Of a stretch of DNA of 64,000 nt, positions 33,427-64,000 are shown one piece after another. The stretch spans positions 8,805,875 to 8,869,874 of the forward strand of contig OZ316891.1 of assembly GCA_973895155.1 (NCBI GenBank), written 5' to 3'. Within the stretch, counting starts at the first letter, position 1. Each line of letters starts with the position of its first letter. A program made the position numbers and the translations under genes. Origin of the DNA: Marsupella aquatica. Its lineage: Eukaryota > Plantae > Marchantiophyta. Under the pieces are notes generated by a model, which saw only the letters and a program-made list of their open reading frames with translations, searched no databases and was not told the DNA's origin.

Positions 33427-33883
33427 TGTTGGGTATTTACTCTTACGTCTAGGTTAGGTATGACGTGGTTGGTACAACAACGTGGGTTGGTACAACTACG
33501 TGGTTAGGTACAACTACGTGATTAGGTACAACTATGTGGTTAGGTACAACTACGTGATTAGGTACAACTATGTGGTTAGGTACAACTACGTGATTAGGTA
33601 CAACTATGTGGTTAGGTACAACTAAGTTGCACACTATATCATAAGAGGCATGTATGCTTGGAGAGGAAAAACCAAGGCTCATTGTTATGGAGCCACTTGA
33701 GAGATAGGGAGAGCTTACACTGTGGAGACTCGGTATAGCCGACGGGCTTAGAGTTCAATAAAGCTCTCTTGTGTGTTCCCGTGGACGTAGCCTCAAGGAG
33801 GTGAACCACGTATCTCTTGTGTCGACTATTGTGCGTTGGATGGTTCATGGGCTTGCCGTTGCGATCGTCGTCTATGCTCAACA
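33427..33883 (+). repeat. Copia 5' LTR (457 bp) with 9 x 18-bp tandem units
   Basis: Starts tgttggg, ends ctcaaca; near-identical to the 3' LTR. Confidence 0.95.
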
Positions 33884-36800: not shown

Positions 36801-37042
36801 TGACGCATAAGTCTGATGTCTTGTCCATTTTTAAGAAGTGGAAGGCCCAGGTGGAGAATCAGACTGGAAACACGATCAAGTGTTTGGATACAAGGGTGAA
36901 GAGTCTGAGGTCAGACAACGGCGGGGAGTACACTTCAATGGAATTTGAAGAGTACTATTCAGAACAGGGGATAACTCGCCATCTCACCACAGTTTATACT
37001 CCACAGCAGAATGGTGTCGCTGAGAGGCTCAATCGGACACTG

Positions 37043-39154
37043 AGTCGCGAATACAACTTTCACCTACTCGTAATTGCTCCGGCGTTGCCTAACTCCAGCG
37101 TTGAGCCCCTCTTAGATTTGCTACCATCATGGCCATTAGGTATGCGACTAACAAAGAGGAGGCTAGTAAGAGCAAGGACAAGACTTGAGAAAAGCGCGCT
37201 CCAATTAACTTTATTGGGCCCATTGCCGATCACGGAAATATGAACTATTTTTCTGAAGAATCACCATAGGGGCCCAAGAAGCCCCACATGAGCCCGATCA
37301 TGGGGCCGCATATTTCTCGGCCAACGGACCCAGGGGCCAAAAGTTATGGCCGACTCAAGCCGCATGCTTGTAGTTTGGGCCCGTTGCCGATCATGGAAAA
37401 ATGAACTATTTTTCCAACGGATCACCATAGGGGCCCGAGAAGCCCCACATGAGCCCGATCATGGGGCCGCATATTTCTCGGCCAACGGACCCAGGGGCCA
37501 AAAGTTATGGCCGACTCAAGCCGCATGCTTGTAGTTTGGGCCCGTTGCCGATCATGGAAAAATGAACTATTTTTCCAAGGGATCACCATAGGGGCCCGAG
37601 AAGCCCCACATGAGCCCGATCATGGGGCCGCATATTTCTCGGCCAACGGACCCAGGGGCCAAAAGTTATGGCCGACTCAAGCCGCATGCTTGTAGTTTGG
37701 GCCCGTTGCCTATCATGGAAAAATGAACTATTTTTCCAACGGATCACCATAGGGGCCCAAGAAGCCCTACATGAGCCCGATCATGGGGCCGCATAATTCT
37801 TGGCCAACGGACCCAGGGGCCAAAAGTTATGGCCGACTCAAGCCGCATACTTGTAGTTTGGGCCCGTTGCCGATCATGGAAAAATGAACTATTTTTCCAA
37901 CGGATCACCATAGGGGCCTGAGAAGCCCCACATGAGCCCGATCATGGGGCCGCATATGTTTTGGCCAACGGACCTAGGGGCCAAAAGTTATGGCCGATTT
38001 AGACTCGATTAGAGTCGCCGCGCATCGATGGACCAAGAGGGGGTTGCCTGGACCAGGGGGGGTTTCCTGGACCAGAGCAGGGTTAGGGCCGTAACTTTTA
38101 GCCCCTTATGCCACAATTTGCGCTCGAGGCCAAGTTATAGAAGGTTTTCAATTATCTTCGTTTCGAGCTAAGTGGCGGGGCCCACGGACCCTTGGGTAGG
38201 GGGCCAAAGATAGGGGACCAAAGCTGGTCCGGGGGTGGCAGGTCCCCAGAAGCATATATGAGGGGAGTGGTCCTCTCAAGTTTGAGCTCGAGCTGATCGC
38301 GATCAACGAAGATACGTCGTTTCGAGTTTTGAAGCGGAAACAAACATAACTCGACGACCGGATCTCCGTTGGGGGAGTTCTTGGGCTCGTTGGAAAGCTA
38401 ATGAAGAAAGCTACCTCATGGTGCTCTCTGATTGTGCATTGGATGATTTTGGTTTTGAGGCTTGCAATGGGGGGAGTCCCTCTTGCCGATCCGAAGTCGA
38501 ACAGTGACCAAACCGCATTTAGTTCCCACGGGGACCTGATGTTGGAGAGGTAGAACCAAGTAGACTCTGGGGGCTGCCATTGAGATCTGGTCCCGATGCA
38601 TGGTGAGAGGTTGAGCGGAACCCGGTTTCGCAGAGAGGTGGCTAAGATCTAGAAACTGAATGGTCCCGGCGTGTTACTACTAGTTTGTGACAAACTGAGT
38701 TTGGGCCATGGGCATGTCCTGGAGGTAGGGCGGTCAGCCATTGACGGGTAGAAAGTAGGGAAGCTTGGGCGACATCCGGTAGATAGACTATTCTGGACAA
38801 ACAGTGATGTCGACCTTAGTTTCAGCTTATGGCAAGGCCATGCGGGCCTGGGAGGCTCTATCCGCTGACCTACTTACTAACGACTGTTGAGCTTGAGGCA
38901 AGACAATGGTCTTGGGAGTTCCGAGATCAAGACAAGTTCTTACCGGTTGGTTGGTTGCTTGTGCAGATAGCAAAGACCGTTGAGCGACGGTTGTGCTGAC
39001 GAGGGCAAGTGCGGCTTTGTATGGGAGGGGTCGCTAACGACAAGGAGTATAGTCGGGGAGAACTTGCCCCAACATTCCGTGTTAGTGCAAGGTTCGACTT
39101 GTTTCAAGGCTGAGAAACGAGTTTGGACGGGCACGTGGTGGGAGGGCCACCACT
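37043..39154. mobile_element. 2112-bp non-coding insertion inside the copia integrase (probable solo LTR with AGT...ACT termini)
   Basis: Integrase ...RLNRTL|LERSRSML is restored when the insert and one CACTG copy (37038-42, 39155-59) are removed. The termini are AGTCGCG...CACCACT and there is no long ORF. Confidence 0.8.
37215..37998 (+). repeat. 161-bp tandem repeat, ~5 highly similar copies
   Basis: Unit ggcccgttgccgatcatggaaaaatgaac...ggccaaaagttatggccgactcaagccgcatgcttgtagtttg. Near-identical ORFs at 37346 and 37507 give the period. Confidence 0.95.
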
Positions 39155-41656
39155 CACTGTTGGAGCGGTCACGGAGTATGTTGAGCCAATCGAGTTTACC
39201 ACAAGAATTTTGGGCAGAAGCTGTCAATACCGCAGCTTATTTGGTAAATCTTTCTCCTTCTAGTGCTATCAATTTCAAAACGCCGTTTGAGATGCGTTAT
39301 AAGCGGCAAGCAGACTATCATGGCTTGCTAGTTTTTGGAAGTGATGCATATGCTCTCACACCAAAGCAGAATAGGACCAAGTTGGATCCTACCTCCAAGA
39401 AATGTGTTTTTCTTGGGTACCAGAGTGGTGTGAAAGCCTATAGGCTATGGGATCCTATTGCCTGTAAGCTCGTTGTCAGTAGGGATGTTTCCTTCAATGA
39501 ATCCAGATTATTGAAGGAGGGGGAGAATACTCAGGTCTCCCGTACTGACAAAGAAAAATCTTCTATCCCGGATCTCGTTGAGGGGGAGATTGGTTATGAG
39601 GTGCATGACCGGAGAAAAGGAGTTGCTCCAATTATGGAGTTGGTTCCTGTGCCAGAGGAACCAGAGGAGTTTGTTGATGCTGGTGAGCAGCAAGTGGATG
39701 CTGTTGAGCTTCAAATTGTACCAGCACAAGCAGATCAACCGGAGTCATCGGCTAGAAGAACATCTGGTCGCATTGTACGCGCTCCACCAAGGTATGGACA
39801 GTGGGTTGATTCATCTCAACTGCAAGAGGATGATTTTACAACTGATGATGAGGGTGATGCGTTAATTTTGGAAGAAGGGGAACCTTCTTCATTTCATGAG
39901 GCAAGTGCTTCAAAGGAGAAGCAGAAGTGGACTGCAGCAATGCAAATAGAGATGCAGTCACTAAAGGACAACAAAACTTGGGAGCTTGTTAAGCTGCCTA
40001 AGGGTCAGCAAGTGGTGGACAGCAAGTGGATTTACAAGCTGAAGGATAATTCCATAGGAGGTGGATCGAAGGTCTACAAGGCTAGGTTGGTAGCAAAGGG
40101 ATTCACACAAGAGAAAGGTGTGGATTACAATGAGGTCTTCTCACCAATTGCTAAGTACTCTACAATACGACTATTGTGTGTACTTGTTGTAATGTTTGGT
40201 CTGCTGCTAGATCAGATGGATGTTGTCACAGCTTTCCTCTATGGCACATTGGAAGAGGTGATCTTCATGAGACAATCGCTAGGTTTTGGGAAGAGAGGAC
40301 AGGAGGAATTGGTTTGCAGATTGCTGAAATCCTTGTATGGGTTGAAGCAGTCACCAAGACAGTGGAACAAGCGGTTTGACGATTGGATTCGGTCACAAGG
40401 TTTTCACAGAAGTGTATTTGACCCTTGTGTGTATTTGAAACCGGTAAAGAATGTTGTCTTTGGGTTCATTGTTTTAGTACTTTATGTGGATGATATGCTA
40501 ATTGTAGCCAAGGATAGGTCTGAGATTGTTAAGCTCAAGGCACTGCTTAGTGCAGAGTTTAAGATGAAGGACTTAGGGCCAACTAAGAGGATTTTGGGTA
40601 TGGAGATCACTAGGGACTTGGAGGCTGGCAAGCTATGGTTGACGCAGAGCAGTTATGCGAGGAAGGTAATTGCAAGGTTCAACATGGGGAATAGCAAGCC
40701 AGTAAGTACCCCGTTGGCTCCACACTTCAAGTTATCATCAGCGTTCTGTCCTATGGATGACACAGAGAAGGGGTTGATGTCAAAGGTTCCGTATGACAAG
40801 GCAGTGGGGAGTCTCATGTATTTGATGACTTGCACTAGACCTGATCTTGCTATGGCTATGGGCAAGGTGAGCAGGTACATGTCGAATCCAGGGAAGGTAC
40901 ACTGGGAAGCAATGAAGTGGATTATCAGGTACTTGAAGGGTACCGTGGATTATGGTCTTTTATTTGATGCGAATGCAAAGAATGCTAAATCATTGATTGG
41001 CTATGTTGATTCTGACTATGGACAAGATTTGGACCGAAGGAGATCAACAACAGGATACGTGTTCACACTTGGCGGTGGATGCATAAGTTGGAGGTCTACT
41101 TTGCAGAAGTGTATTGCTCAGTCTACTACAGAAGCGGAGTATGTTGCAGCTGCGGAAGCAGCAAAGGAAGCGATTTGGTTGGATAGACTTATCATTGAAA
41201 TGGGATTGCCACAGGGGAATGTGAAGCTCCATTGTGATAGTCAAAGTGTGCTCCACCTTGCTGTGAACCAGGTGATGGACAGCAGAGTGAAGCACATTGA
41301 CGTTAGGTACCATTTTATCAGGCAGGCTGTGTCTGATAATTTGTTTGAGCTAGTCAAGATTGATGGTAAACTCAACCCGGCTGACGCATTTACCAAAGTG
41401 ATTCCTTTGGAGAGTTTCTCTAGACACCGTGACGTATTGCAGGTTTTGCAATTGCATCACAAGTAGAGTTTTCTTAACATTCATTGTAATTACTGATATA
41501 TGCTCTTCCTCATTCCTATGTATTAGGCTACGGCTTAGTTCTGGTTTGCTCTAGTTAGAGAGGGAAACCGGTTTGGTTTTTGTCCAGAACTTCCCGCTGA
41601 GGGATCATATACATTGGCAGTATTACTCTCCCCTAGACCAGAGTCAAGGGGAAGAT

Positions 41657-42149
41657 TGTTGGATATTTACTCTTACGTCTAGGTTAGGTATGACGTGGTT
41701 GGTACAACAACGTGGGTTGGTACAACTACGTGGTTAGATACAACTACGTGATTAGGTACAACTATGTGGTTAGGTACAACTACGTGATTAGGTACAACTA
41801 TGTGGTTAGGTACAACTACGTGATTAGGTACAACTATGTGGTTAGGTATAACTACGTGATTAGGTACAACTATGTGGTTAGGTACAACTAAGTTGCACAC
41901 TATATCATAAGAGGCATGTATGTTTGGAGAGGAAAAACCAAGGCTCATTGTTATGGAGCCACTTGAGAGATAGGGAGAGCTTACACTGTGGAGACTCGGT
42001 ATAGTCGACGGGCTTAGAGTTCAGTAAAGCTCTCTTGTGTGTTCCCGTGGACGTAGCCTCAAGGAGGTGAACCACGTATCTCTTGTGTCGACTATTGTGC
42101 GTTGGATGGTTCATGGGCTTGCCGTTGCGATCGTCGTCTATGCTCAACA
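41657..42149 (+). repeat. Copia 3' LTR (493 bp) with 11 x 18-bp tandem units
   Basis: Follows the PPT and ends ctcaaca before TSD CTTGT. Confidence 0.95.
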
Positions 42150-44637: not shown

Positions 44638-47164
44638 TCATTCTTTGAACCCTTCGATCATAGCCATACCGTTTGACATCTGAAGTACGTTACAACGTGG
44701 GAATCCAGCAGCTCTCAGAATCGCTTGGTACTCCTCCCTGCTTCTCTCCCGGGCACCCTTCAAATACGTCAGCATTATCAGGTCCATACACTCAACATAT
44801 TTACCCTGAATGTTGTTGTCATGCTTGTCCCTGAGAAACTCGGCAACGATTACCTTCCCGTTCTTTGCCGGCAGTGCTTTCCAGCAATTCTTCAGGATTT
44901 GGATGGCTTCTTCATCTCCGTAGTTGTGTAGAATCCACTGCATTCGAGTCCCAAGGCGATGAGTAATGAGAGCGATTGTCAAACAGTCAGTGTCAGTGTT
45001 CTTATTCACTTAAGGTTAAGATCGACGCTGGCAAAATGAGAGAATTTAATATTGTGGAGCCACGATCAATGTATGAAGAAACACTATTGCATTTATTTTG
45101 TTTTCTTGCACACGATCGTAAAATCACTGTATCGCCCCAAATTAGCTACGAACGAAACAACACGACACAGCCAAGTTTGAGACACCTTTCAATGAATACT
45201 CAGAAAACGTTAATTAAGGTAGATGCACTCTAGCTTTTTCTCTTAATTGTGATTCGAACCAATTCGGTCGAAAGTATTCAGAAGGTGGGAGTGACGTCCG
45301 AACCTTAAGAAACATTGCGTCTCCCGATGGCACGCTCTCGAAGAAACTGCCTCCGACATGCTGCACACCTGAGGCACAGAAATTTTGGAGATAAAATCAC
45401 CGAAAGGTAAATAGTGCCATTCAGAAATAACTCTCTACATTTACATTGGATGTGCCTGTCCATGGAAGTTTGACAAAGAAGATCATATCATGGATTGAAA
45501 CTAAGCTATCAAACTTACTGTAGATAATTTAAGAGGGCACAAAAGTTAAGAGCTTGAAGATGAAGATTGGAGACGGGGATCGGTGTGGCTAGGACCGCGC
45601 ACCATTTGCAGGAGCTGCGGCAATAACATATGGCAGGTCGAAATTGATCCCTTGAATATGTGGGCTGTGAGCAACAACCTGAGATACAAAGTATCCCCTA
45701 GATCCGCCCACGTCGACCAGAGTATTCACACCGTCGAGCACACCCGAATGCAGCAAACTGTCCAACGCTCCTTGCGAGACCAGATTGCTGTTGGCTGCCA
45801 TCGCCTTTTGAAACGTTACCCGAAACTCGGGGTTGTCAAACTCATACACAGGCACTCCGAACGCTTTTGTGAAGGCATTGGTAGTCTCATCTAGAACGGC
45901 CTCCGGCAAGCAAAGCTCAGTAGGAAAAGTAATTGAGTTATTGAGCAAATCTGCACAATGTCCGGCGGGATAAGTAGGTCCATATTAGAGTTTACCAAAA
46001 GTTTACCAAACACTAGTACAACAGTCAATTCCCATTTGTTTCCGTTAGCTCCGTACGTACGATTAGATGAAACGACTCTAGATCGAGCAACTGGGAATCG
46101 CTTAATTGCATATCCCTCCCGAGCAGTTAGCATACATTCTGCGGTACGAACATGATCGATCTGTAACACAAATCAAGGTATGTTGCGATGGACCTCAATT
46201 TTTCTATCAGAAACTTGTCGCGAAATAAATTGAGATTTGACACTCCAGTAGTTAAACTCAGACCAATTTGCTAGTAGTAGGAAAGGAATTTTGAACAGGT
46301 CACAACTAGCTTTAGATCATATGCACTTGAATGGACGGCCGGTGGCCATGGCCATGATGCATGACAGCCGGGAATTTGAGATCTCTCGACAATGTTGTGA
46401 CGTGTTCACTGGCTGGCAGTTGTACACAGTCATACTGACTAGAGGATGAACGTTACTATTAATTAGAGCTATGCATGAAGGCTGTGATGGGCTCCCCAAA
46501 AGTTCTTGGACCAATCGTTTGCGACCACAATTGAAAGTCCGTACGTCGCATACAAGAACTAACGCCATGGAGATTGCTACTACTGTCTAGCAAGGAATTT
46601 CCCACATGCACAGCTGACAAGTGATTTTAAAATAACATCTTACTGTAAAATTCTGCACCTGTTCGACGCGATGATCCTCGTGTGTCTTGGCTTGCTACCT
46701 ACCAATGCCCTTATGGGGCCGCATTTGTAGCCAGGATCAAGGATAACACAGAACTAATCGATGAGGTGTGAAGGCGATTACGTACCTGCAAAGGGCGTGA
46801 GGCTCATCGGATTTTCTCGGACGAACCACTGGGAGACTTCCGTAAGTCCATACACAGGTTGCTCATCGCCGTCTAGAGATTCACTAAAGACTCCTTCTCT
46901 CACTAAGGGCCTGAGGAGGCGTTGCAAATTCTGAACCACTGTAGGTCCTGCAGGAGTGGATTTGGTTGGCAGTTGCCGTAGAATTTCCTCAGCCGACATG
47001 GGCATTCTCCCTTCTGCACTAGCGAGGATATCTGGGACGCCTAACTTAAGTACAGCCTGGAGCGCCGTGAAAACGAGTCTTGTGAAGATCAGATTCTGTG
47101 CCACGAGGTGACTGGAATCGATTTGTAGAGTTCTTGCATCATTGATGCTGCTCATCGTGGCCAT
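44638..47164 (-). CDS. Class II (COMT-type) SAM-dependent O-methyltransferase; exons 47164-46786, 45950-45603, 45368-45304, 44937-44638 (363 aa)
   Basis: Dimerisation domain (ALQAVLKLGVPDIL...LQRLLRPL...YGLTEVS) followed by LVDVGGSRG, FDLPYVI, VQHVGGSFFESVPSGDAMFLK|WILHNY, LKNCWKALP and GARERSREEY. All GT-AG junctions preserve frame, including the 65-nt third exon. Confidence 0.92.
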
Positions 47165-50100
47165 GGTTGCAAGTTTGTGCACAGATCTGCGCCTGGACCT
47201 CGCCCAGACCACCGAGTAGGGTTGAAGAGGCCCTATACGGCAACGACCATAGCTCGGCAACCACAAGCCGGATGTGCGAGCTTGAGACGGGGTTATGAAC
47301 GGGCGGCCAAGTCCTAGAAGGTGCCGCTGAGGGAAGGAAATGCACGACATTTGTCCAGGAGGAAGATCGATGCCAGTACTGTCGGACTCCCACTATCAAA
47401 GTTGCAAGCCCCACCAGATTTATCAAGATCTATCCTGCCTCACATGCATAAAAAGGGAAAGTAAAACTCGGAATCTCCGCTTAGCTCTTCGTGCTCTCGA
47501 TCGATCATCCAAATCTATAATTCAAGTTGGTGGATGAATCTGGTCTTATACAACAAGCCTACAACAGAAGTGAACGAAGAGAAACTGAGAATTGAATGCT
47601 TTCTTTCGATATCGATCAATTATTGGAATAGAGAATATTATACTGAAGCAGAACTTATGCGTGCGACACAGATTGGTGTCATCATGTAATTGACTGTAGT
47701 CCTACTGTTACCGACGTTGCTGTCGAGAAAAGTGGAGAAAAAAAGTGGAGAAAAACGTGTGGTCTGACTAGAAGAAAAGTGAGGTTTATAAGTGTACAGA
47801 TGGATTTATGACAGAGTTAGTACAACTTCCAGTTGAATCTTGAAATAGCCTCAGGGTGTGAGGAGTCCAATGTGTGTGCCTGAAAACAAATACATCACAT
47901 AGTTGTCCAGTTAAATATGGAAATATGAGGACTCAGGATATCCCATACACTTACTACCATGCACATATTGAGAAAGTGCATGAAGTGGATGATTGCTCGC
48001 CAGCAGTGTTTCCAAGACAGCCTGCACTAAGACATGGTTGTCTATATCAGAGTGCCAAAGATAAAAAATGTCAACTCGAGAGATAGGACCGCAAAGGTAA
48101 AAGATCCTATCAGGGGAGAGGAAATGGGAAAGACACAAAAGGGATAAAGAGGCCCCACCACTTCAAGAGGCAAAAAGAAACGCAAAAAACCAACGACAGA
48201 GAAGACAAACAGCTGCCATACTCAGAGAAAACACTGAAAAACCTGTCAAAGCTCTCAAGATATATATCACTGCCAAAAAGATAGGAATCCCAAAGTGGGA
48301 GACATGGTCCGAAAAGGAGAAAGAACCCAATAAAGGTTGGGGAGAAGGAAAAGACCCCAAAAAGATCAAAGAGACCCAACAAGTCAAAGATAACCCCAAA
48401 AACCAAAGACTAGATGGATCTAGAAGCCCGACAAGCTACAGCGTGCCTTATGTGGGCTTGTCTCAGCTTCGGGGTTGTCTGGGCTTGTCCAGGCTTCTGA
48501 AAAGGAATGTTTTAAAATTTTGATACCCAATGCCAATGAATCTGTTGGGACAGGGCAAAGCACTTGTAACCAACTCAACTTCCTATTTTGTAGTGCAACT
48601 TAATAAGTTGAAATGTTCCTTATTTGGATTTAATCTTTTGAATTTTCTATGAATTTGGTAGTTTCCTAGACCCCTCTACTGTAGTGTTTAAACACTCAAC
48701 TTATTCCCTTGTCAAAATACTCCTGTGACCTGCATATTTTTATTCAGTTTCTCCCTCTCCATATCCTAGTATTAATAGGCTTCTTAGTATGGAGTCCACC
48801 ACCCAATCATGTGAGATCCCCTCATCTATACAGTGACATAGCATAGATTTGACCTCGAAAAAATGCCATGCAAGTATTAAAACCCTAAACTATGAGAAAA
48901 TATAGGCTATGCAGTACTCAAAACTCTTTACGTTGAGATTGAAACAATCTAAGTATACATAGTAACTCATTAAAATTTCATATTTAATTGTACAGCTCAC
49001 ACTCTGGGGGTCTCATTTCCCCCAAAAAAATGACACATCATATACAAAGAATAGGCTGAGTTGTTTTATTGATACTCAAGGAAGACTCTATAATCCTTGT
49101 TTAATACATTACGGTCTTTTAAATCTATTTTTGAAACTTATAAGAAAAGATAGGTCGAAAACATACTACACACATTGTGATTTTGTACAGCAGCAACTGA
49201 GAAGTGCAATCGGCTAGAAAAGCATTGAGCCTGTTGAGGTTGAATCAACATCCAACAGCTGGATCTATCTGTGGAGAGAGAGAAACATTCCAGGAGGCCA
49301 GTATCATTTGCTCCTTTCTCTCCCTTCCCTTCATGCTTTTAAGCACCAACTGAGGTGAATTCTGATAGAGTATTTAGATTTCACAGTTTCAACAAATGGG
49401 GCAAAAGAATCAGGAAACAATGAATTAGGCAATGAGTCTGATGGAAGTCCATGGCAACCCCATACAAGGCATTGTATGATGCAAGCACAAAGATTTCTGC
49501 TAGAAGGAGAATATTGCTAGTAACTCAAAGGAGTGGTTATTAATGCCACTTTTATTTTGGCTGAATTTTGTATTCCTAGGACTCCAGATGGCTAGCAAGT
49601 TTGCTAGCGAAAGAGGAGTCCCCAAATTGGGTTAAGTTTGCTAGTGAGGTGGTGTATATTTAGGGTTTTTAAAAAATATTTTAGGGGTTTTGCCCTTATT
49701 GGCAAAAAGTATGGTACTGCAGGGAATCATTTTCAGGAAATCCATGATAATGAAAGTATGAAATTCTTTTTTTCCCTATGTGTGAGATGCACTTGAGTAA
49801 CCATTCAAATGTGGATATTGGCCACACTTCACTTTACATGAACTTGGGGGCACAATCAGGGGCAAAACATTTACCAATCCTAATTATCTGCCGGTTGCTA
49901 GATGTGTGTCCCTTTTCTTTGCTGATGAGTTAGAGATCCTCTTGAGGTGGTCTAAAAGAATGGACCAAGCCTTCTATTCAGGGCCCTTGCGTTTGGTATC
50001 TCTAGACCTAACTGTTTGGCTTAGGCATTTTAATTTTAGTGTGTACAAGTGGCCCTCCCCTTTGCTTTGGATGGAGATACACTTAAGGGCCTCACCTTCT

Positions 50101-52597: not shown

Positions 52598-54195
52598 ATG
52601 GATGGCCTGGGAGCTGATGAGCAGTACCGAGTTGACGCATTGGCAATTCCTAAGAGCGTAGCCGCTCGAATTCCACAAGCGCCCGATAGTTATGCGAATT
52701 TACAGACTTCATTACAGCAGCTAGGTCTGGGGCATCTACTTGCCGTTCCTTGGAACGTAGAACTCGACTCATACTTGCAGGATTTTGTGAAGAGGTCACT
52801 GCTTGCTCCTGAATTTTGACAGACCATTCGAGCTTGACCGAGTCTGTGGACTGTGGAGCAAATTGCTCGTGCCTTCCGCTGCCCTTCAGAAGGAGAAGGA
52901 TTGTATTCAAAGAAGAAAGATTTGTCTACTCCCTACTTCTCTGGGATTTGCAATCTCACAAATGGCTGGAATCTAACACAGTGTACTTATCCAGATTTGA
53001 GAGTGCTGCTGGAATTTCTAGTGTCAATTTTACACCCGAAAAAGCCAACCATTTGCCCAGTGGCTTTGGTGAACCCAATTGTAGCTCCACATAGTGGAGC
53101 CATCGAAGTGAATTGGGCCTTGTTAATTTTCAATGTGATGAAGGATCAGGTGAGGAGCATGAAGGCAGGTAGACCTACCTATCTGCAGGTATATCTGTCT
53201 CAGCTCTATCAGGCTTATGATTGTTTACATCCAGAGGAGAGAACAAAAAGAGGATTACTCCTGATCGAACTAGGCATTGAAGAAGAAATTGGTGTGGAAG
53301 AACCAGTGGATGCTATTCCCTTGGATTCTAATGATCAGAATGTGGATGTTGATATGGATTTGGAAGATGCCTCAGTGGGTGAACTTGAAGTTTCATCTGC
53401 TCATGATATGGAGTTGGTTCGACATCCTCTGTTTAACTTGGTGTATTCAAGAGAAGTCAACGAGGAAAATCAACCTGAAGCTGAAAAAGCTGAGGACGAC
53501 TCTGAGCAACACGAAGCTGTTGCTGACCCGACCATTGCTGTCATCCTGAGGGTTGATCCAACTACTTCTTCAAAGGCAGAGTTCAACCAGCAACTTATTG
53601 ATAAGTTAATTACTCTTTTCGGTTGTGATGATGTGGAACTCTATGATGTTGTCTGTAATTTAAGATCAGAGGTAGTCAGCTTATCATCCCCATTTCCAGA
53701 TCAATTAACTCTTGTCAGGACCACCTCCCCTAGCCTATTGTGGGATCAGCCTTAGAAGAATTCGTTGCTCTCAGTCCTGTTGCACCACCAAACCTGCCTG
53801 TAGAGCCAAGTGAACCTGTTCCTGTGACAGAGGATGTAAATTATGCTGCCATTGTAAACGACTTACTGGACATGCTACAGTGTGAGCCACAGGAGATAAT
53901 GTCAATTGTTAGCAACTTCACTCAGAAATCCCCAGTTGCAGAAATTCCTCATAATCTAGATCCTTACTCATACAGTCCTGATTCCAACTATGAACCCACT
54001 AATGGACCTATCTTCACTCGGGGTCGCTATGAAGATCCTTATGTTAGACGGGATCTCTCTGATGACTCTGACCCGCCTTCGGATAATGATACTTATAGAT
54101 ATTATGACAATTCCCTCGGGGGTCTCACTATATGGAGGACCCCCCCATCACCTGCGATGTTTTTCATGCCTAGACCCCCATACTTATTAAGTTGA
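52598..54195 (+). pseudogene. Disrupted TE-associated hypothetical protein (putative plant transposon protein-like domain plus acidic tail)
   Basis: Intronless frame with two TGA stops near 52817-52837 and a frameshift near 53745. GWNLTQCTYPDLRVLLEFLVSILHPKKPT...VNWALLIF...YLSQLY resembles accessory ORFs of plant TEs (recognised from memory). Confidence 0.55.
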
Positions 54196-54576
54196 AATTT
54201 TTTTTCCTCCCTCTTTCTTTCTTCTAAGAGTCTAAAATCCAAATTGTATTGCCCCTATAATTTGTGAAGTAAAGTGTCACATATCAATATAAAATGCCTA
54301 GAAAGAAAAGATAAGTCTATGTCAGTACCTTGTGAAGTCGTATGTCAGACATGGCACGCCCTGCAACAGTTCTTGCACTTTTGTCGACCTTAAACTTTGA
54401 TCATTTCAATGCATCATTTATATTGTGTACCTAAAAGGTCATCCCAATATAAACCTTACGTGCATAAGTGGGATGGCCTTTAAGGTCACAACATAAATAA
54501 TCCATTCCACCCATTGATCACCAATCCCATGCTCCATCCATACTCCATTGAAAACTTATGTTGAGAGATGTAACAT

Positions 54577-54635
54577 GTGACGGAGGGGAATTGAACCCCT
54601 AATTGAGAAAGGATCTCAAGTTGCCAATCCGTCAC
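54577..54635 (-). ncRNA. 59-nt tRNA-like structure lacking a D-arm (mascRNA-like)
   Basis: GTGACGG ATTGGCAAC TTGAG-ATCCTTT-CTCAA TT AGGGG-TTCAATT-CCCCT CCGTCAC. It has a perfect 7-bp acceptor stem, a 5-bp stem with 7-nt loop, and a 5-bp T-stem with a canonical TTCRANY loop. Confidence 0.6.
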
Positions 54636-54668
54636 CCCCTATCCTATCCCACTACACCCACTAATATT

Positions 54669-54748
54669 AACAAAATAAAACATATATACAAACTCTCAAA
54701 AACTAAACAACAAAATAAAACATATATACAGACTCTCAAAAACTAAAC
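54669..54748 (-). repeat. 40-bp U-rich direct repeat (2 copies) between the transposase stop and the tRNA-like element
   Basis: aacaaaataaaacatatataca(a/g)actctcaaaaactaaac occurs twice on the plus strand. Confidence 0.9.
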
Positions 54749-54761
54749 AGTAACATGATAT

Positions 54762-57700
54762 TCATACCATTGTTTGAAGATATTGATCCAAAGCACGTCT
54801 ATCTATTGGATCCAACACATAGATACGATCCATAACCCCTTCTTTCATGGTTAAACTAACACTAGCAATGACCATTTCAATATCCATCCATTTCAAATCA
54901 GTGGTATCATATCTGAATTCACTTTTGCTCTTACCAATAGGACTATACCAATTTAACAACAGTTCACAAATGTTACCTGATTGCCCTGCAAGTGGAGTTG
55001 GCCTATCCATCAAATCAATTGGTGACCGACAATTGCCCCACCTACTGCCATACTTCTGTCTCATTTGGACAATCCGACCCAACCAAAAATATTTCTTACC
55101 TGCTGAGATTGCCTCCACCACAACCTTATTCTTTCCTCCCTTTCTTTTTCCAGATCTAGTACTTGGAGCAAGACTATCATCAGACTCAAATGCAATTGCA
55201 CAATCAGTGCCAACATCAACAAAACATGAGTTAGGATTGACTTCTTGCACTTTTCTCTTGCCAGTACTATAGTATAGCACTTGTTTCACCCTTGTCAGCC
55301 TATCTTTTGACAAATGCGGATTTCCTACCAACTGGCTTACCAGAGTGGATTTGTAAATCACCTTGCCTTCATAAGTAACAGTAGGCACTACCTTGGTACG
55401 ATTCTGTACATTAGTTACAGCATGGACAACTGATCCAAACACATGCCGAACTTCATGACCTAATGTCTCAAGCTCATCTGAGGGGTCTACATCAAACTGT
55501 ATATCATCTCTGTGTACATCATCTGAATGCATCTCAGGAACAACAATGGGATCTGGTTCTGTTAACCATGCATCTATTCTATTCAGATCATCCTCAGGAT
55601 CTTCCAATTCATGAAAATCTCCAGTTGGGCGAGGACCTATGTCTGGTGGTTGGTGCTCTACTTGCTCCTCAGAATCATTGCAAACAATTGCTTCCTTCAG
55701 AACCACCTCTAGTGGCCAGGTCTCACTTTCCACAACCCAAGGACATGTCCACCATCTCTTTCTAGCTGCTGGTAAGGAACTTCGTGGAGACATCTGCAAT
55801 TGATGCATAAGATCCTTAGCAGCAACAAAACCTTCTTTAAGGGCTGCAACCACTAATTCATTAGTCTCAATGAGAGAATAGTCAAGTAGATTTGGTGCTT
55901 CCTCCCCTTCCCCTATAGGATGAATCTTCCCCCATACATGATCTTGTTTCTTATGTGAACGACCTATCTTCAAGCCTTCTGGTCCATATTCTAGGGCAGC
56001 AAGCCGGTTCAGTCCAACAGCACTATCCAACAGAGAGCCAAAATCATAATTCCGCTCATGGCCACTCATGCCTCCTACCTTGCTGAAGAAAATCTCACAA
56101 CAATCTGAACCTAGCAAGTGGAAGGGAACACCTAGATGTGGGAACTTATCTCGAAAGGCACAAATTAACAGCACAATGAAATGACATGACATGTTAACAT
56201 CATGAAAAGCCTGAATAGACATCATGTCTTTCTCAGTGTGTGCTGCAAAGTTCCCACCCACTGAATGGTCACCAAACCTCAACCACAATCTCCACAAACG
56301 TAGAAAGAATGAAACCTTGGATGCTAACACAATACGGGACCTCAAATCATGAACTGGAGAAAAGAAAATATCTAAGTAATCTGCACAAATCTCCAAGTAC
56401 AACTGAGTTCCTAAACTTCGTTCATGTTGTACATCTCTCCTCTCATACATATCTTTCAGACATTGCTGCACTCTTCTTGCTGCTATTCGTTGTGGACCTG
56501 CCCAATTCTGCCGGTCAGTCCTATTCACATCATCCCAAGCCATGCCATGTTCATGAATTGGATAATGATTGTAGACATTAGCTACATAAGATAAAGATGC
56601 ATGTTGATCTCCTAGCACCAGTAAAGAAGACACTCTGTCTAAGGGGTTTATCATCTTTTTCCCATTATGAGGTTGGTCTTGGTCACCAAAGCCATACAAA
56701 TCTCCATTTGGTAGAATTGACACAGAGTATGTCCACCCTTCCCACCCAACTCCGTACCTTGGGTATGATCCATTCTGCCCTCTGTAATCTTCCAGCATCA
56801 GCTTTCGGCGACGTGCATCACCATCACTAGCATGTCCAAGCAAAGGGCCTACCATAGCTCTACAATATTCATCCCAAAAAGCCTTTAACTGGACCCAATG
56901 CTCTCGTACCCAAGAAGCTGTGAACTTATTACAAGTTGGAAGTGCACACACAACCAATTTAGGTAAGGACTCATGCAGAGGATTCACAATCACAACTCGG
57001 GCATACATGCACTTGGGGCATTGTTCAAATGTACTTACAATTTTATCATACCCCTCATCACCTTCACCTACTAGAATTTCCAAACCATAGGAGCATACAT
57101 GCTGCTCTGAAGGTCCACAGAAACCAATGAGAGTATCATACTTTGCCTCCCACCTGAAACACAGACATGCAATTTTTCAATATCACAGCAATTCCACCCA
57201 AGTGCTACTTGTAAAGTCATTAAAAAAACAATTGGAAAAATGTCCAGTTCCAATTACCTAGGGCGTTCTTTGATCCTTGTTTCATCCTCAGCAAAGATAA
57301 CAGGCACATCCCCCTCAATGCCCAATGAGTGCTTTGCAGCAGACAACACTCTAGCAATCTCCTGAAAGGTTTCCTTCCGTAACCCGGTTCGAAAAGGTGT
57401 GAGTTTTGCTCTATCACGTTTTAGGGTCACAAGGCTAGGGGCTGTCAAGTTTCGTGCAAAACAATGAGCAACTTGACGGCCCCCAAATTGGAACATAGCC
57501 TGAGCAATAGCTCGAGTCCTATTACTGTAACGATTACCTTTTGGCTTCCTGCCTAAATTGCGAGCTACATCCTTCAAGAAATCCCACAAACCCTCCTTAC
57601 CACCAAATGCACCATTCCTGTGTCCATTCAAAATACTCCTAAGAAACAATCTCAAATCCTTCCTGTTTGCTGCAACTCCTAACAACTCCTCTAGTTTTCG

Positions 57701-59338
57701 TTTCCTGGTGCTCAAGGCACATACTTTCTGAGCCTGCAAAGCTAACAACCAACGCTCTTTTCGTCGCACAGAGTTCAGGTTGTGCACTTGATCTCTTAAC
57801 TCTGTGTTGGTCAAATAATCCAAACGTATACCACCAGCAGTGGTTCGGCTCCCTCTGTGGACTACTGCTTCCGCTTCCCTGTGCACCCGTCCACGAAAAT
57901 CATCTTCTAGTGTTATAGAATCACATTCACTACAAGTTAGATTTTCAAATCCTCCTCCATTATGTGATAACCTCAAGCAATCCTTGTGTCTAAAACAGCC
58001 TGCTATACTCACAACACTCTCTCTACTTGGATGGAAAACATCCAAGCAACAACTTGGCTCACAATGCCATGTAATTCCCCCAGACTGATCATCTAAAATG
58101 CCAGAAATATCATAAGACATACCCTTCCATAACAGTCGAGGCACACCTCTCTCTACCCATAATCCCCAGCAAAGCAAACTCAGACCAAGATCAACAGATT
58201 CACACACACCTGAACCTGAACCTGAACTGCTGCCTGTCCGGGACCCATCATCTTTAAAGAACTTCAAAATCCCGCTCTGACCAGGATGTAGGTCCCTAGA
58301 ATCAGTCCTCTTTGGCCTGCCCCTCTTCCCAGACCTCAAGGCAAGCATTTTTGTGTCATGCCTAGTCTCCAATGCATCCAAGTGATCTCGACTCACTAAG
58401 TGTGTCCTCAAATTGGGCTCCAAGGTAAGCTTCTTGGGGCACAAGTCAGTGTGAAGCATTCCACAGACAGTACAGCGAACCTTAAACAGGAAAGACCTGT
58501 TTACATACTCAGGAGTACTGGGATCAGGAACAATAGAGAATAGTTTGCCATCATCCCCAAGCTCAGCATTCAATCGCTGAACTATCTCAACACCTACTTT
58601 GATGGCGTCTGCATGATCATATTCTGGCTTCTCAGAGATGTCTGCTACCTGAACCAAAGTAGAAGGAATGCCCCTTCTCCGACAATAGTTATCCTTGTGC
58701 TTATTGAAGACCAAGTGTTTGGTCTTAAAATTACTAAAGCAATTGGAGATGGATTTAGGGTTCTGAGAGTTGTCTGCATTGCCATAAGTTTCCCTACATT
58801 CAAGACACTCCAGATGCCCTCGAACATCTGTCCCCTCATCCCAGGTACGAATTCTCCAATTGTGATCACCATAACCCTTCTTATGTACCCATTTCTCTAA
58901 CCTCATCCACTCATCTTTCCATAGCTTTGATGGGACATCTCCCATCAATTGTGACTCAAAAGAAGCCCTTACAGGGGAGGGTGCTAGTGCCGTTGGCCCC
59001 AGTTGTGGTGTCCCAGTATTTGGACCCAATGATGCAGGAGTGCAAGGATGATAGGGTACTGGTGGGATCCTCCCACCATCTCCAAGTTCTTGTTGTACAA
59101 CAATAACTCTTCCATCCAGCTCAGACAGATCAATTAATTTCTCATGTACAAGTTTCACTCGACCAGGAAGTCTCTCATCCCAAAAATCAAAGTCAAAGTC
59201 TAGAGTAGAGGCAATACGAGCCCTAAAATCATGTAGGGTGTGTCCTTCTTTGAATGACAAAACACAAATTGGTAAATCAGCCTTGTCATCCCCAACTTTG
59301 CGTATTAATTTAACAGAGTTGGGTTTAGGGGCTGCCAT
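54762..59338 (-). CDS. P-element/THAP9-like DDE transposase, 2 exons (59338-57258, 57153-54762; 1490 aa), intact
   Basis: A 104-nt GT..AG intron joins the 694- and 773-aa ORFs in frame. Motifs appear in P-transposase order: RYSNRT...APSLVTLKR (HTH-like), FAEDETRIK..R|WEAKYDTLIGFCG (D1), HASDGD (D2), DQPHNGKKMIN (DxxHxxK), DRQN, LLGSDCCEIFFSKV (E). There are N-terminal Zn-finger-like motifs and a C-terminal FWLGRI...NWY domain. Confidence 0.8.
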
Positions 59339-59833
59339 TGCAATACAAATCTAGAACATGCATAGCACCATTGCTTTTGGAGTTGATAACAGAAAGACCT
59401 GCACAAATACATTTGAAATACACACAAGGGAAACACATTAGGATCTTCAAGAGATGCAATGACAACATACACATTCTCATGTAATGTACATAATGTCAGC
59501 ATACATTTAACAATAGAAGTGCTAATAGGCCAAAACACTTTATAATGCAATCCATCATACATGCAAATGTATTCAGTGAAAATCATGATATACCGCTAAA
59601 GTTGGATAAAATATCTTTGGACAAAATATCCTTTTCGCCTGCTTTTCTAACAATTCCCGAAGTTTAGTGCTTCTGCTCATCAAAATACAGCACTATTAGT
59701 GACCTTAATTATGACAAAATGTCAACACTAATAAAATTGGGTACTACCACCCATGATGCACCTTAAGTATGTGCCTTGCTCATACCCCACTAAGACGTTG
59801 AAACCTAAGTAATAGGTTTGTTCATTATTCAGA

Positions 59834-60508
59834 TCACTGGAGCCATGAAATGTGGTCCCTGATTGGAGTCTTGAGGTGTGGATCAATAGGATGACGGGGG
59901 CAATAAAACATCTGTCGCTGTTGTCCATGTGCTTCATGGTCCCAGATGTCCCTATCATGAGCGAACCCTTTGCTTTTGATCATCTGGAGACAATCTGTAT
60001 GCCAGGCATTTGGACATCGTAGACATTGTACCATGTTCTTGACCATCTGACCCTCAAGACTCTGATAACATGTCACACATGTATGCAGTGGGCAGGACTT
60101 TGCATCAGCTACCAAACACCCAAAGCAATAAAATCGTACACAAAAACGATCAGAGCATTTTCGCACAATTGTAGGTGACGGTCCCACAGTGCGGCACCCA
60201 TAACACATGGCCTGGTCCTGGTTACAATTTGGGCAAAACCATGGCTTCCCTCCATGATGGAGGGGAAGGACTACACAGGGGCAAGAGTCATTAGGGGCTT
60301 CATCTCCAACCACATAATGAAATTGCCTGTGACATGGCCCATCACAAATTACCAACTTCCCACCATGCTCACAAATTGCACAAACATGAGGGCTAGTTTG
60401 TAGAATCTCTTGCTCAGAGAACAACGGAATACGCAATACCTCTTCCAAAGAGGCTCCTCTGTCAGAGGACTGTGTTGCTTTCTTTATGTTTGAAGTCCTT
60501 GTCGGCAT
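59834..60508 (-). CDS. Stand-alone EDM2/NSD-type composite PHD-finger protein (224 aa)
   Basis: CAICEHGGKLVICDGPCHRQFH...WFCPNC...CYGC...CPLHTCVTC...QCLRCPNAWHTDCL...FYCPRHPIDPHLKTPIRDHI mirrors the EDM2 PHD region as I recall it (CAICDNGG..., YFCPNC, CPLHKC, CRRCPKSYH, YCQEHEIDEELLTPVRDHV). Intronless. Confidence 0.8.
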   Translation of the reverse strand: MPTRTSNIKKATQSSDRGASLEEVLRIPLFSEQEILQTSPHVCAICEHGGKLVICDGPCHRQFHYVVGDEAPNDSCPCVVLPLHHGGKPWFCPNCNQDQAMCYGCRTVGPSPTIVRKCSDRFCVRFYCFGCLVADAKSCPLHTCVTCYQSLEGQMVKNMVQCLRCPNAWHTDCLQMIKSKGFAHDRDIWDHEAHGQQRQMFYCPRHPIDPHLKTPIRDHISWLQ

Positions 60509-60824
60509 GGTTCAACTGCAATCATCACAAAGCACATCACATATGAGGGGGACATGATGATAGTGAGCAATCCATAGACAAAGATAAGGTTAATCATAGC
60601 ACCTGCTCCAATGATCTGCAAACCTCCCTCCCAGATGAAGTCAACTACACAGTGCAACCTGAACACCCACCAACCAAGACATACATAAATACAATGCCAG
60701 CTTGCAAAACTTTGCCACATAATGGGAATGAAAAATATTCTCATATATCATGGATGGTACAATTGCAGCCTTGCAAACAAAGGCCTAGTCATATATGAAC
60801 AACGCATCCATGTACTATCAGGGA

Positions 60825-61223
60825 CTACAATGTCAAGCATCCATGGGTTGTAACCTTAGCTTGATCTGGAATACTATCTGGGGCTACAATATCAAGCTCA
60901 GTTGAATGTGGAATACTATCAGGGACTACAATGTCAAGCGTGTCCGGGATGACAATCTTGCGTAAAAGACACTCATTTTGAGGCCAAATGGTTGGCCTTA
61001 TACAAGAGCACTTCCAACGACGTGTGACAACTTTGCCATGCTTTCCCATGTATGTCCTAGTAACAAGCCTTCCACGCATTTTCAAGCAGAAGCAATGGAA
61101 CCATTCAAAATTCCCATCACCAACCCTGCACTTGACACAAGGTTCACACCAACAGCATTCATCTGGATGCTGCAGAAGGAGCTTCTCATAATTCGCTTCT
61201 AATGTAATGCCCAATATAGCCAT
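60825..61223 (-). CDS. Small Cys-rich protein with an ING-like PHD signature and LDIVxPDS repeats
   Basis: CCWCEPCVKC...EWFHCFCL...RWKCSC, then LDIVVPDS and LDIVAPDS. A third copy is out of frame at ~60815-60838, so the ORF may be frameshifted. Confidence 0.5.
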   Translation of the reverse strand: MAILGITLEANYEKLLLQHPDECCWCEPCVKCRVGDGNFEWFHCFCLKMRGRLVTRTYMGKHGKVVTRRWKCSCIRPTIWPQNECLLRKIVIPDTLDIVVPDSIPHSTELDIVAPDSIPDQAKVTTHGCLTL

Positions 61224-62067
61224 GGCACTATTTTTTTATACTCGGTGAATGGCCAGACGATTAGACGTGCAATGACAGGCAACTTACAATTCACTAGGTA
61301 CACTATGTGTTCTAGCAAACTGCTTCACCGCAAGTGTTGGTGCTCACTGCTGCAAGCGCTGATGACAACCTCTACAATTCCTTTTGCAACCTGTGAACAA
61401 AATTGAAACCACCATTCAATTTCTAAGTTTCAAAAACTTCCCATTACATGAAGACAACCAATTGGCCATGCATGTTACTACAGCAATAAAATAATAACCC
61501 AATCGCTCAACAGACCTGAATAGCTAACCTGAATAGGATCAAGTTCAGAATCCAGAATGGTAATGCCCTTGCCCAGAAGCTTGAGAAACAAAAGAGAATT
61601 TAAAATCAAGCACGAGCGTCATCCACGTCTTGACCAGGCCCGCCACCCAGTATGGCTGGAGGCTGTGGTCCCCCCTGGCTGAGTAAACACTTAAAGAAGT
61701 CTTCTCTTCTAGATGACTTAAAGAAAATTGCAGGAACCAGCCAACGGGACACCAAGGCATGTAATAGAGAACCAGATTTGTGCGGGTGTGTGGGGGACGA
61801 CAGAAGTCAAGTTACAAGATTTTTTTCCTGGGGTCCAGCCCACGGATGGAGATCATGTAAGGTGGTCAATCATGGCAAGTGCAATCATTGGAGACCTGTA
61901 CTCGCGGTTACTCTAACGATGCATCCAAAAAACATGTGCGTCAAGTCGTCGATGCGGACACAGAAGGAGAGATGAGTATGGACAACGTCGAGACAAATGA
62001 CGACAATACTGAGCTAGTATTCGGCTGGGAAGTTGGAGCTGGATCTCAGCAGTGGCTCCAAACCTTA

Positions 62068-62177
62068 TCTGCGAGGGCATGGCGAGCTCTGGAGGACAAA
62101 ATACTCAAAGAGCTTATCGCCATTCACGGAGCTCAGAACAGGAATTTTATAGCTGAAAAGCTAAACGGGCAGATCAG
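62068..62177 (+). pseudogene. R2R3-MYB first-repeat exon fragment
   Basis: ARAWRALEDKILKELIAIHGAQNRNFIAEKLNG(RSG) resembles RGHWRPAEDxKLKELVAxYGPQNWNLIAEKLxGRSG. It has a +1 G frameshift, ends at a CAG|GT donor-like site, and no downstream MYB exon is seen. Confidence 0.7.
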
Positions 62178-62439
62178 GTGCTTCTCGTCTATGACCGCTA
62201 CCAGATCGACTCTAGGTGTGCCATGCGTGATAGATTTGGGCGTCAAATAGTAGCAAGCAAGCAAGTACGATCGTCAAAGTAGGCAGCGCCTACCTCCCGA
62301 TTGAGCAACGCAGCAATGCAGCTCCAATCCTGGCACTCCGGTTTGAGATATTGCAACACTCCCTGCAGTAGCCACCTCCCGTTTCAGCAAGCTAGCAGCT
62401 CCCGTTTTAGAAAGCAGCAATGCAACACTCTCGACACCC

Positions 62440-63310
62440 ACCTCCCGGAGCGCAACACTCTTGCTCGATCCTTCACTCCCGGGTTCACTTCAAGCAGCAG
62501 CGCAGCTGCAAAGTCTCGCTCTCCCCTTCACTCCCGGGTTCACTTCAAGCAGCAGCGCAGCTGCAAAGTCTCGCTCTCCCATTCACTCTAATCAGCACAC
62601 GCAACTGAGAAGTCTCGCTCTCCCCTTCACTCTAATCAGCGCACGCAACTGAGAAGTCTCGCTCTCCCCTTCACTCTAAGCAGCAGCGCAGCTGAGATGT
62701 CTCGCTCTCCCCTTCACTCTAAACAGCAGCGCAGCCAGGAACTCTTGGTCGATCCTTCACTTCAAGCTGCAACGGCAGCAGCACAGCCGAGAGTGCAACA
62801 CTCTCGCTCTCCCCTTCACTCCAAGTAGCAGCGCTTCACTCGATCCTTCGCTCGATCCTTCGCCAAGAACTCTCGCTCTCCCCTTCACTCTCGCTCTCCC
62901 CTTCACTCCTTCGCTCGATCCTTCGCCGAGAACTCTTGCTTGATCTTTCACTCCAGCCGCAGCAGCAACGCAGCTCGATCCTTCTCCGAGAAATCTTGCT
63001 TGATCCTTCACTCCAGCCGCAGCAGCAACGCAGCTCGATCCTTCACTCCAGCCGCAGCTCGATCCTTCACTCCAGCCGCAGCTCGATCCTTCACTCCAGC
63101 CGCAGCTCGATCCTTCACTCCAGCCGCAGCAGCAACGCAGCTCGATCCTTCACTCCAGCCGCAGCAGCAGTGCAGTCGAGAGCACAACAGGAGTCGATCC
63201 TTCACTCCAGCAACAGTGTAGTCGAGAGCACACTCTCGCTCGATCCGACCTTCACTCCAAGTGCAGTCGAGAGCACACTCTCGCTCGATCCGACCTTCAC
63301 TCCAAGCAGG
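62440..63310 (+). repeat. Complex nested tandem array (24-, ~41-43- and 55-bp units)
   Basis: Recurrent gctcgatccttcactccagccgca and ctcgctctccccttcactc motifs. Confidence 0.9.
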
Positions 63311-64000
63311 AGCACAACTGGTTTAGACCCCGTTTAGACCATTTGCTGCAAGGTACAAACAAAAGAGACTCTGTTGAGGCAAAGAGCGGGTGGGGCCAAA
63401 GGGATAGTGGAGGGAAACGACACGGGAGGAGACTGACAAGGGCCAATTGAGGTAAACGAGACACGTTAAACAGAAAAATTTCAAACTTAATCCCGGTCAA
63501 ACCCTAAACGTGAGTCCCCATAAAACCAGATCATTCTCAAATTCTTGCCATGTTAACATATTAGAAAAATTAGGAAAATATATTGGGAATGTTATGTGTG
63601 CCATGTGTACCAATGACATAGTGACACGTGTACTTTACATAGTCCGACACAAAGACCCCCTAACTTCTTTGTATGCCTTCCATCTACAAAGTCAAAAATA
63701 TTAATATCCCTATTATTCTTACAAGTTGTCCAACATATAAAGTTGGCCCTATTGTTCTTACACAAATCTTCTTAAGTCTTCCGAGAAACCCAATTAACGG
63801 ACCCTATACTTCGTCGCACATGATATGAGATTTTCGCGGAGTGAGACCCCCGAGACAATTCCCTTGAGTCATCACCAAGGCAGGGGTTTGAAGATGTTGA
63901 TACAGCTTTGAGGTCAAACCCAAACCTAGTAGCAGTGATTACGTCCTCTACTCAGACTCCCAGGAATGCTACTATCAAGAAGAAGTATCCCAAGCTTCCC

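Follow-up and report, generated by a model that had tools for sequence, protein, structure and literature searches.

Is a cluster of open reading frames (ORFs) in which a large transposase stands next to putative histone-reader genes a single mobile element, and if so, what would a histone reader do there? The question is raised by a 64,000-nt stretch of the Marsupella aquatica (Marchantiophyta) genome (assembly GCA_973895155.1, contig OZ316891.1, positions 8,805,875 to 8,869,874, forward strand), hereafter called the window and numbered from its first base. A first-pass annotation of the sequence had proposed at 54577..63510 one multi-gene P-like element with captured chromatin readers and a tRNA mimic. 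The window does contain a bounded DNA transposon of 9,740 bp, which we regard as P-like with near certainty and which carries, besides its transposase, a stand-alone gene for a PHD cassette. Our preferred reading, to which we give a probability of about 0.4, is that the PHD protein would keep transposase mRNA produced under host silencing, by way of read-through.

Ends, insertion site and copies

The unit is delimited by the following features:

54115..63854, minus strand: whole element, 9,740 bp
54107..54114, plus strand: left copy of the target site duplication (TSD), ACAATTCC, 8 bp
63855..63862, plus strand: right copy of the TSD, ACAATTCC
54115..54129, plus strand: terminal inverted repeat (TIR) at the element 3' end, CTCGGGGGTCTCACT, 15 bp
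63840..63854, minus strand: TIR at the element 5' end, 15 bp

The two TIRs form a perfect inverted match over 15 bp. Neither TIRs nor TSD had been found in the first pass; both exist outside the coordinates it gave, so that its unit is real but larger than proposed. Six public runs (X1 to X6) from four studies were considered, one of them possibly the window's own source. A joint linking 54105 to 63854, with the element absent, was present in the four runs compared with this region (4/4), and a similar joint in a fifth. Because the contigs bearing it are about 92% identical to the flanks of the element, they are other copies of the host repeat without insertion. The element interrupts an ORF of this multi-copy repeat (52838-54114 and 63863-64000, plus strand); the reading frame continues across the empty site, and the flanking ORFs have no Pfam match.

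By itself the window site is compatible with a TSD of 8 bp or 10 bp. In L001, a complete relative, the TIRs are 26 bp long, both start with CTCGGGGG like those of the window element and are bordered by a perfect 8-bp TSD; the 3' end of a second related locus (L003) also starts with CTCGGGGG. Since L001 and L003 share a terminal C, we take C as the terminal base of the element and 8 bp as the length of its TSD, in line with the 7-8 bp anticipated for a P element. The 10-bp, Mutator-like reading is ruled out by this conserved base. De novo detection in related loci mostly yielded TIR/TSD pairs that are short and due to chance; we discarded these and kept L001 alone. Lone TIR-like words (C..GGGGGTC) occur in the window at 32190, 49003 and 51562, where no partner or TSD was found; they are perhaps the ends of old non-autonomous relatives.

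Read depth per contig or bin was used as a relative measure and not as a copy number. In X1, element contigs about 1 kb long and differing at 0-4 positions had a depth of 454-526, compared to 18-28 for flank and empty-site contigs; the corresponding values are about 1,600-2,200 and 23-51 in X3, and 94-130 and 5.5 in X5. From these ratios to unique-looking contigs (about 20-55), tens of near-identical copies are likely. The element has been recently amplified and its copies are near-identical; among the classed transposase differences between copies, drawn from the 40 of 776 and the 40 of 425 rows listed, with positions 56054 and 56187 omitted, 16 of 23 are synonymous. Depth over the two cargo ORFs resembles that over the transposase in X1-X5, for instance 507-662 and 455-738 in X1, or 123-153 and 111-195 in X5 (excluding one spike of 427). 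In X3-X5 it drops over the 5' tandem array, where deletion joints show that the array varies in length. Between X4 and X3, two runs under one organism code, element depth (54039-61416) relative to a unique-looking contig differs by a factor of about seven, through either a copy-number burst or an assembly effect.

A transposase of the P superfamily

The transposase gene is organized as follows:

57258..59338, minus strand: exon 1, with two C2H2-like zinc fingers (residues 178-214 and 289-319), a further conserved Cys/His cluster and the first catalytic residue, D685
57154..57257, minus strand: intron, 104 nt, GT..AG
54762..57153, minus strand: exon 2, with D804, D853xxH856, E1047, the helical insertion and the C-terminal domain
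54783..55232, minus strand: C-terminal beta-barrel, tentatively BAH-like by fold comparison

Once spliced (59338-57258 joined to 57153-54762), it yields an ORF of 1,490 amino acids (aa) without internal stop. The intron is backed by two intronless relatives, L001 and L002, that align in one piece over residues 1-1486, and the alignment of a third locus (L012) breaks at the same residue as the intron; the intact spliced transposase announced by the first-pass annotation is therefore upheld. The DDE triad of the P superfamily with its D(2)H motif is present, and its columns are conserved among the homologues covering each: D685 in 47 of 47, D804 in 52 of 55, D853 and H856 in 50 of 50, and E1047 in 46 of 48.

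Likeness to P transposases is visible by fold comparison only: the window protein retrieved nothing in Pfam or PDB sequence searches, and PDB sequence and profile searches missed the P transposase. The catalytic core being interrupted by the intron, fold prediction was made on an uninterrupted relative, P0006, which is 50% identical to the window protein over the core (predicted local distance difference test, pLDDT, 82). With Foldseek this model matched the Drosophila P transposase (6p5a) at E 5.2e-11, with a template modelling (TM) score of 0.73 by target, the next family being at 7.5e-4. VIA-align gave Z 25.3 over 419 aligned residues (root-mean-square deviation, rmsd, 3.6), compared to 9.1 for the next row; hAT, Transib/RAG and Mutator-type folds, with Z of 8.8 or less, were rejected. 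The top Atlas clusters for P0006 carry TNP-like Pfam families, and weak Pfam P-family matches appear in 1 of 56 and 2 of 37 relatives. Identity to the Drosophila transposase is about 15%. On this modelled basis we predict a P-element fold for the window transposase.

Pfam found no THAP domain in the transposase, and neither a C2CH nor an AVPT-like pattern was seen. As the N-terminal THAP is absent, the element belongs to the P superfamily and not to the canonical P/THAP9 family. The motif order had been said to match P/THAP9 transposases: the superfamily part of this statement stands (DDE/D(2)H, fold, TIRs and TSD), the THAP part does not. The proposal of one multi-gene P-like element is itself supported by ORFs lying inside the ends, a multi-copy unit, an 8-bp TSD and a predicted P fold.

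We identified 94 transposase homologues among 7,998 scored candidates, the named ones coming from Riccia and Adiantum. In a profile search the family amounts to 5,997 clusters at E<=0.001; being nearly invisible to Pfam, it is therefore probably unannotated in bryophyte and fern genomes. A midpoint-rooted tree, which took in 37 of the 122 core sequences and no known P transposase, groups the window protein with three Riccia sorocarpa proteins and four others (bootstrap 100), as would fit a seedless land plant as host. No relatives were found in metagenomes or viral contigs by single-sequence locus scans, nor in prokaryote genomes or viral contigs by alignment scans. L001 (192-6287) is a complete relative of 6,096 bp whose single ORF (about 1,490 aa) is intronless; it has no cargo and is a candidate simple autonomous element. 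L002 (1181-8234) has an intact transposase frame of 1,517 codons and a TIR-like end at 8234, its 5' end not being found; a separate 174-codon ORF (7003-7524) follows the transposase with its own telobox. This ORF has no match in Pfam or in other related loci and is possibly a different cargo gene.

The C-terminal 211 residues of the window protein were folded alone (pLDDT 81). The nine best fold matches of the resulting barrel are all BAH-containing chains (Z 6.0-6.5, rmsd 3.5-5.0, 78-104 residues aligned), and the matches include the BAH-PHD cassettes of EBS and ORC1b. These Z values fall in the common range of the tool, chromo, Tudor and PWWP barrels score almost as high, and Foldseek gave no match at E<=0.001 (best E 0.084); the barrel, which is conserved across the transposase family and had gone unmentioned in the first-pass annotation, is thus called BAH-like tentatively. 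Three relatives (P0076, P0114 and P0139) have a fused C-terminal Tudor (PF21743, E 1e-8 to 1e-9) or SAP (E 6e-10) domain, from which the family appears to acquire chromatin- or DNA-binding modules repeatedly.

Cargo genes, tRNA mimic and a possible mechanism

The remaining parts of the element are, from 5' to 3':

63499..63507, minus strand: telobox and, after it, a pyrimidine-rich tract; presumably the promoter region
62376..63306, minus strand: CpG-rich tandem array, presumed 5' leader, with GAGTGAAGG 17 times
62077..62169, plus strand: degenerate MYB-repeat fragment, antisense to the other ORFs
60825..61223, minus strand: Cys-rich ORF of 132 aa with an EWFHxxC motif, likely coding
59834..60508, minus strand: stand-alone gene for a 224-aa NSD-type PHD cassette, with an acceptor-like site 8 nt before the ATG and AATAAT just past the stop
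54669..54749, minus strand: U-rich 40-bp tandem duplication between stop codon and tRNA mimic, one unit shorter in some copies
54577..54635, minus strand: mascRNA-like tRNA mimic of 59 nt, with acceptor stem, GG loop without D stem, 6-bp hairpin, 5-bp T stem and TTCAATT loop

The 224-aa ORF matches PHDvar_NSD in Pfam (E 5.8e-8); PF23004 reaches 33.1 bits, above its cut-off of 27, and PF23011, PF22908 and PF00628 stay below theirs. NSD2 is matched at E 4e-6, or 1.2e-8 by profile, the ORF has the tandem PHD and variant PHD fingers of an NSD-like cassette, and its nearest Atlas cluster is from streptophytes (0.93). Judged from these domains, the protein likely reads histone tails. The ORF had been described as an EDM2-type module: it is a PHD cassette, as the Pfam and NSD2 matches indicate, but the tools name it NSD-like, no named EDM2 sequence was among the search results, and the EDM2 type is a presumption. 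Six of 23 candidates are homologous. Their alignment (45-82% identity) has 64 invariant columns, and these stand-alone proteins, 213-304 aa long, have their C-termini at or just past the same motif. The PHD-gene profile matched none of the other proteins in the 252-protein set. The ORF shows codon periodicity, and its CpG depletion and codon pattern are like those of the transposase. We think it quite probable that selection on the element maintains this gene.

The 132-aa ORF likely codes for a protein, its codon periodicity in its own frame being comparable with that of true exons. It had been taken for an ING-like PHD, a label that finds no support: there is no Pfam match at E<=10, the best PDB match is YNG1 at E 6.8, none of 15 candidates is homologous, and the ORF shares just the EWFHxxC motif with the ING PHD and not a complete C4HC3 finger. 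A relationship with the 224-aa cassette was considered and rejected (no match, probability 0.1). The MYB fragment, the repeat array and the telobox near 63500 were all confirmed; the MYB fragment, whose Pfam match is weak (E 0.0025-0.009, below cut-off), is likely a captured, dead host exon. The sole telobox of the element is at its 5' end; in L001 and L002, too, the transposase is preceded by teloboxes. Observed/expected CpG is 0.24-0.37 in the coding body (54762-61235), without CHG depletion, and 0.75-0.87 in the 5' array and end (62301-63854), which resemble a protected promoter island.

The tRNA mimic (54635-54577) begins 126 nt past the transposase stop, as had been noted. Acceptor stem, T stem and middle hairpin are fully Watson-Crick paired and the T loop is canonical. 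The second-best Rfam model, tRNA, scores 20.8 for a cut-off of 29, and ARAGORN detected no tRNA in the region. A search pattern defined post hoc from the window sequence occurs once in the window; in 2,412 shuffled 64-kb windows it occurs 19 times with GU pairs allowed, or once with Watson-Crick pairs only. The minimal 61-nt fold has a z of -2.4. Divergent copies in X2 and X3 have two bases changed in the 5' acceptor strand. Rfam on 10 of the 55 related loci (neither tRNA nor mascRNA at E<=10) and ARAGORN on 34 of them (no tRNA) were negative. We conclude that the tRNA-like fold is real and lineage-specific.

These parts suggest the following scheme. The element would move by cut-and-paste, as P elements do with an 8-bp duplication (PMC7776569). 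A single 5' promoter would serve all three ORFs through alternative splicing and polyadenylation, because acceptor-like sites precede each ORF (61391, 60516 and 59399), a poly(A)-like signal ends the PHD ORF (AATAAT at 59829) and the lone telobox is at the 5' end. The transposase message would skip the cargo and pass through this signal. A short message would yield the PHD protein, which may bind methylated H3 on the element and promote read-through. This role is modelled on EDM2, which binds H3K9me2 and suppresses proximal polyadenylation (PMC7529245); that introns marked by H3K9me2 are read through with the help of EDM2 is why we favour it. Cleavage by protein-only RNase P, with the tRNA mimic as its signal, would set the 3' end of the transposase message, tRNA-like structures being RNase P/PRORP substrates (PMC4919922).

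Several observations weigh against this scheme. The P fold was predicted for P0006 and not for the window's own catalytic core, and the splice and poly(A) sites were called from their consensus alone. Of a much longer host protein the cargo comprises just the PHD part; the tools call it NSD-like and not EDM2, and its six homologues could be host genes. None of the listed contigs from other copies covers both transposase and PHD ORF (the longest ends at 59769), so that linkage in other copies is judged from depth. The PHD-gene profile has no match in the 55 related loci, of which 17 reach 1.2 kb or more and 13 reach 2 kb or more upstream from the projected start, and the complete relative L001 encodes a transposase alone. 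The first-pass annotation would have given up its proposal if other copies lacked the PHD ORFs: close copies have them, by depth in X1-X5, but none of the 55 distant loci does, nor does L001, and the PHD cargo is therefore specific to the lineage of the window element and not defining for the family. As for the tRNA mimic, it scores below Rfam cut-offs (mascRNA 23 bits, E 0.037 on 701 nt, for a cut-off of 42.5), in longer windows its fold loses significance (z 0.54 and -0.59), and it is found in none of the 55 related loci (18 include the 3' region).

We nevertheless rank the read-through role first among four explanations. The next one, which we hold to be rather unlikely, makes the PHD protein a targeting partner: it would bind both the transposase and a histone mark and, together with the BAH-like domain, tether the transpososome to marked chromatin, for example inside other repeats, whose disruption would cost the host little. 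The conservation of the C-terminal barrel, its resemblance to BAH-PHD cassettes, the Tudor or SAP domains of some relatives, the insertion of the window copy into the ORF of another repeat and the documented capture of readers by transposons (bioRxiv 2021.11.30.470311) are consistent with it. However, this concerns one insertion site, the barrel with its common-range Z could be a DNA-binding SH3-like one, and L001 keeps intact ends and TSD while having no PHD gene.

More doubtful still is the possibility that the 5' half is captured host DNA of the Pack type (MYB exon, PHD exon, Cys-rich ORF), a passenger whose ORFs are intact since the family is young. The MYB piece is indeed degenerate and antisense, cargo is missing from all 55 relatives, L002 has a different extra ORF, and near-identical copies imply little time for decay. 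Yet the six PHD homologues, with the same short architecture and C-terminal end, point to a long-lived stand-alone gene, and the transposase-like CpG depletion and codon pattern of the PHD ORF suggest long residence in the element. A single-copy cluster of domesticated host genes, with which the intact ORFs and X6 (a third organism code, all 30 bins covered, depth 11-28 in most) would agree and which had been named as a possible refutation, is largely refuted and very improbable in view of the perfect TIRs and TSD, the empty sites, the insertion in a repeat ORF and the depth ratios in X1, X3 and X5.

The read-through role could be extended to a wider scenario, which we consider speculative and improbable as a whole: in a large and so far undescribed P branch of seedless land plants, zinc fingers would have replaced THAP and a BAH-type reader been gained; in the window element a separate PHD reader would act with it, both together imitating the BAH-PHD read-through machinery of the host, so that the silencing mark on the element's chromatin would become a signal for transposase production, and the RNase P-cut tRNA mimic would stand in for ordinary 3'-end formation.

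Elsewhere, the window contains a Copia-type LTR element, recognized by sight of its ORFs (33473-42038, long terminal repeats 97% alike over 300 nt), with a five-copy 161-bp tandem array (37214-37997) in its pol region. A broken non-LTR retroelement lies at 5816-8911 (minus strand), with a weak RVT_1 match (E 0.08) and a C-terminal frame that is endonuclease-like by sight. Two host genes are represented by a plant O-methyltransferase exon (46778-47392, minus strand, PF08100, E 3e-15) and a long coiled-coil exon (20231-22036, minus strand).

Comparison with known systems

P elements are a classic system of animal genetics. With its defined ends and recent amplification, this intact copy makes it possible to test how a P-type enzyme recognizes its ends without THAP, and if a histone reader borne by a transposon acts against silencing or directs insertion; it could also serve as a tagging tool in seedless plants. 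In the open-access literature, Repbase and subscription journals being outside this scope, we came across no land-plant P element described as having PHD cargo or a BAH-like domain; Repbase may list relatives.

The tRNA mimic resembles mascRNA/menRNA and the t-elements of plant mitochondria (PMC4919922) as a tRNA-like fold of about 60 nt, without D stem, 3' of a longer RNA. Unlike mascRNA/menRNA, it scores below the model cut-off and lies in the 3' untranslated region of a nuclear transposon. Fusions of transposons with PHD and chromo readers (bioRxiv 2021.11.30.470311) also represent transposon-borne readers, proposed to act in targeting or evasion; those of section 10 of that source are true fusions, mostly in retrotransposons and hAT. 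The text of this section names no P-superfamily element, separate PHD gene or BAH domain, and its supplements may.

Accessory anti-silencing genes in transposons are already known (PMC5735166). The analogy drawn earlier with VANC of the Mutator-like VANDAL elements is loose: both have a separate accessory gene in a plant DNA transposon and variable non-coding tandem repeats, but VANC recognizes DNA motifs and has a demonstrated anti-silencing effect (PMC5735166), whereas the accessory gene here is a PHD cassette with a histone-reader-type fold, in another superfamily. With EDM2, a member of the ASI1-AIPP1-EDM2 complex (PMC7529245), and NSD2, the cargo shares a multi-PHD cassette of NSD-like Pfam families; it differs as a reader-only protein of 224 aa inside a transposon, and its orthology to EDM2 is presumptive.

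Compared to the P element and THAP9, the window transposase has two C2H2-like fingers instead of THAP, a domain absent from plants (PMC7776569), 1,490 aa instead of 751, and a C-terminal barrel that is tentatively BAH-like; the element moreover carries extra genes inside its ends and has a land-plant host. In P transposases the insertion domain contains GTP-binding residues (PMC7776569). The window element shares with the P element and THAP9 the predicted helix-turn-helix, split RNase H and helical insertion, the short TIRs and 8-bp TSD (PMC7776569, PMC3698922), and the D(2)H-containing DDE motif by which the P superfamily is defined (PMC3698922).

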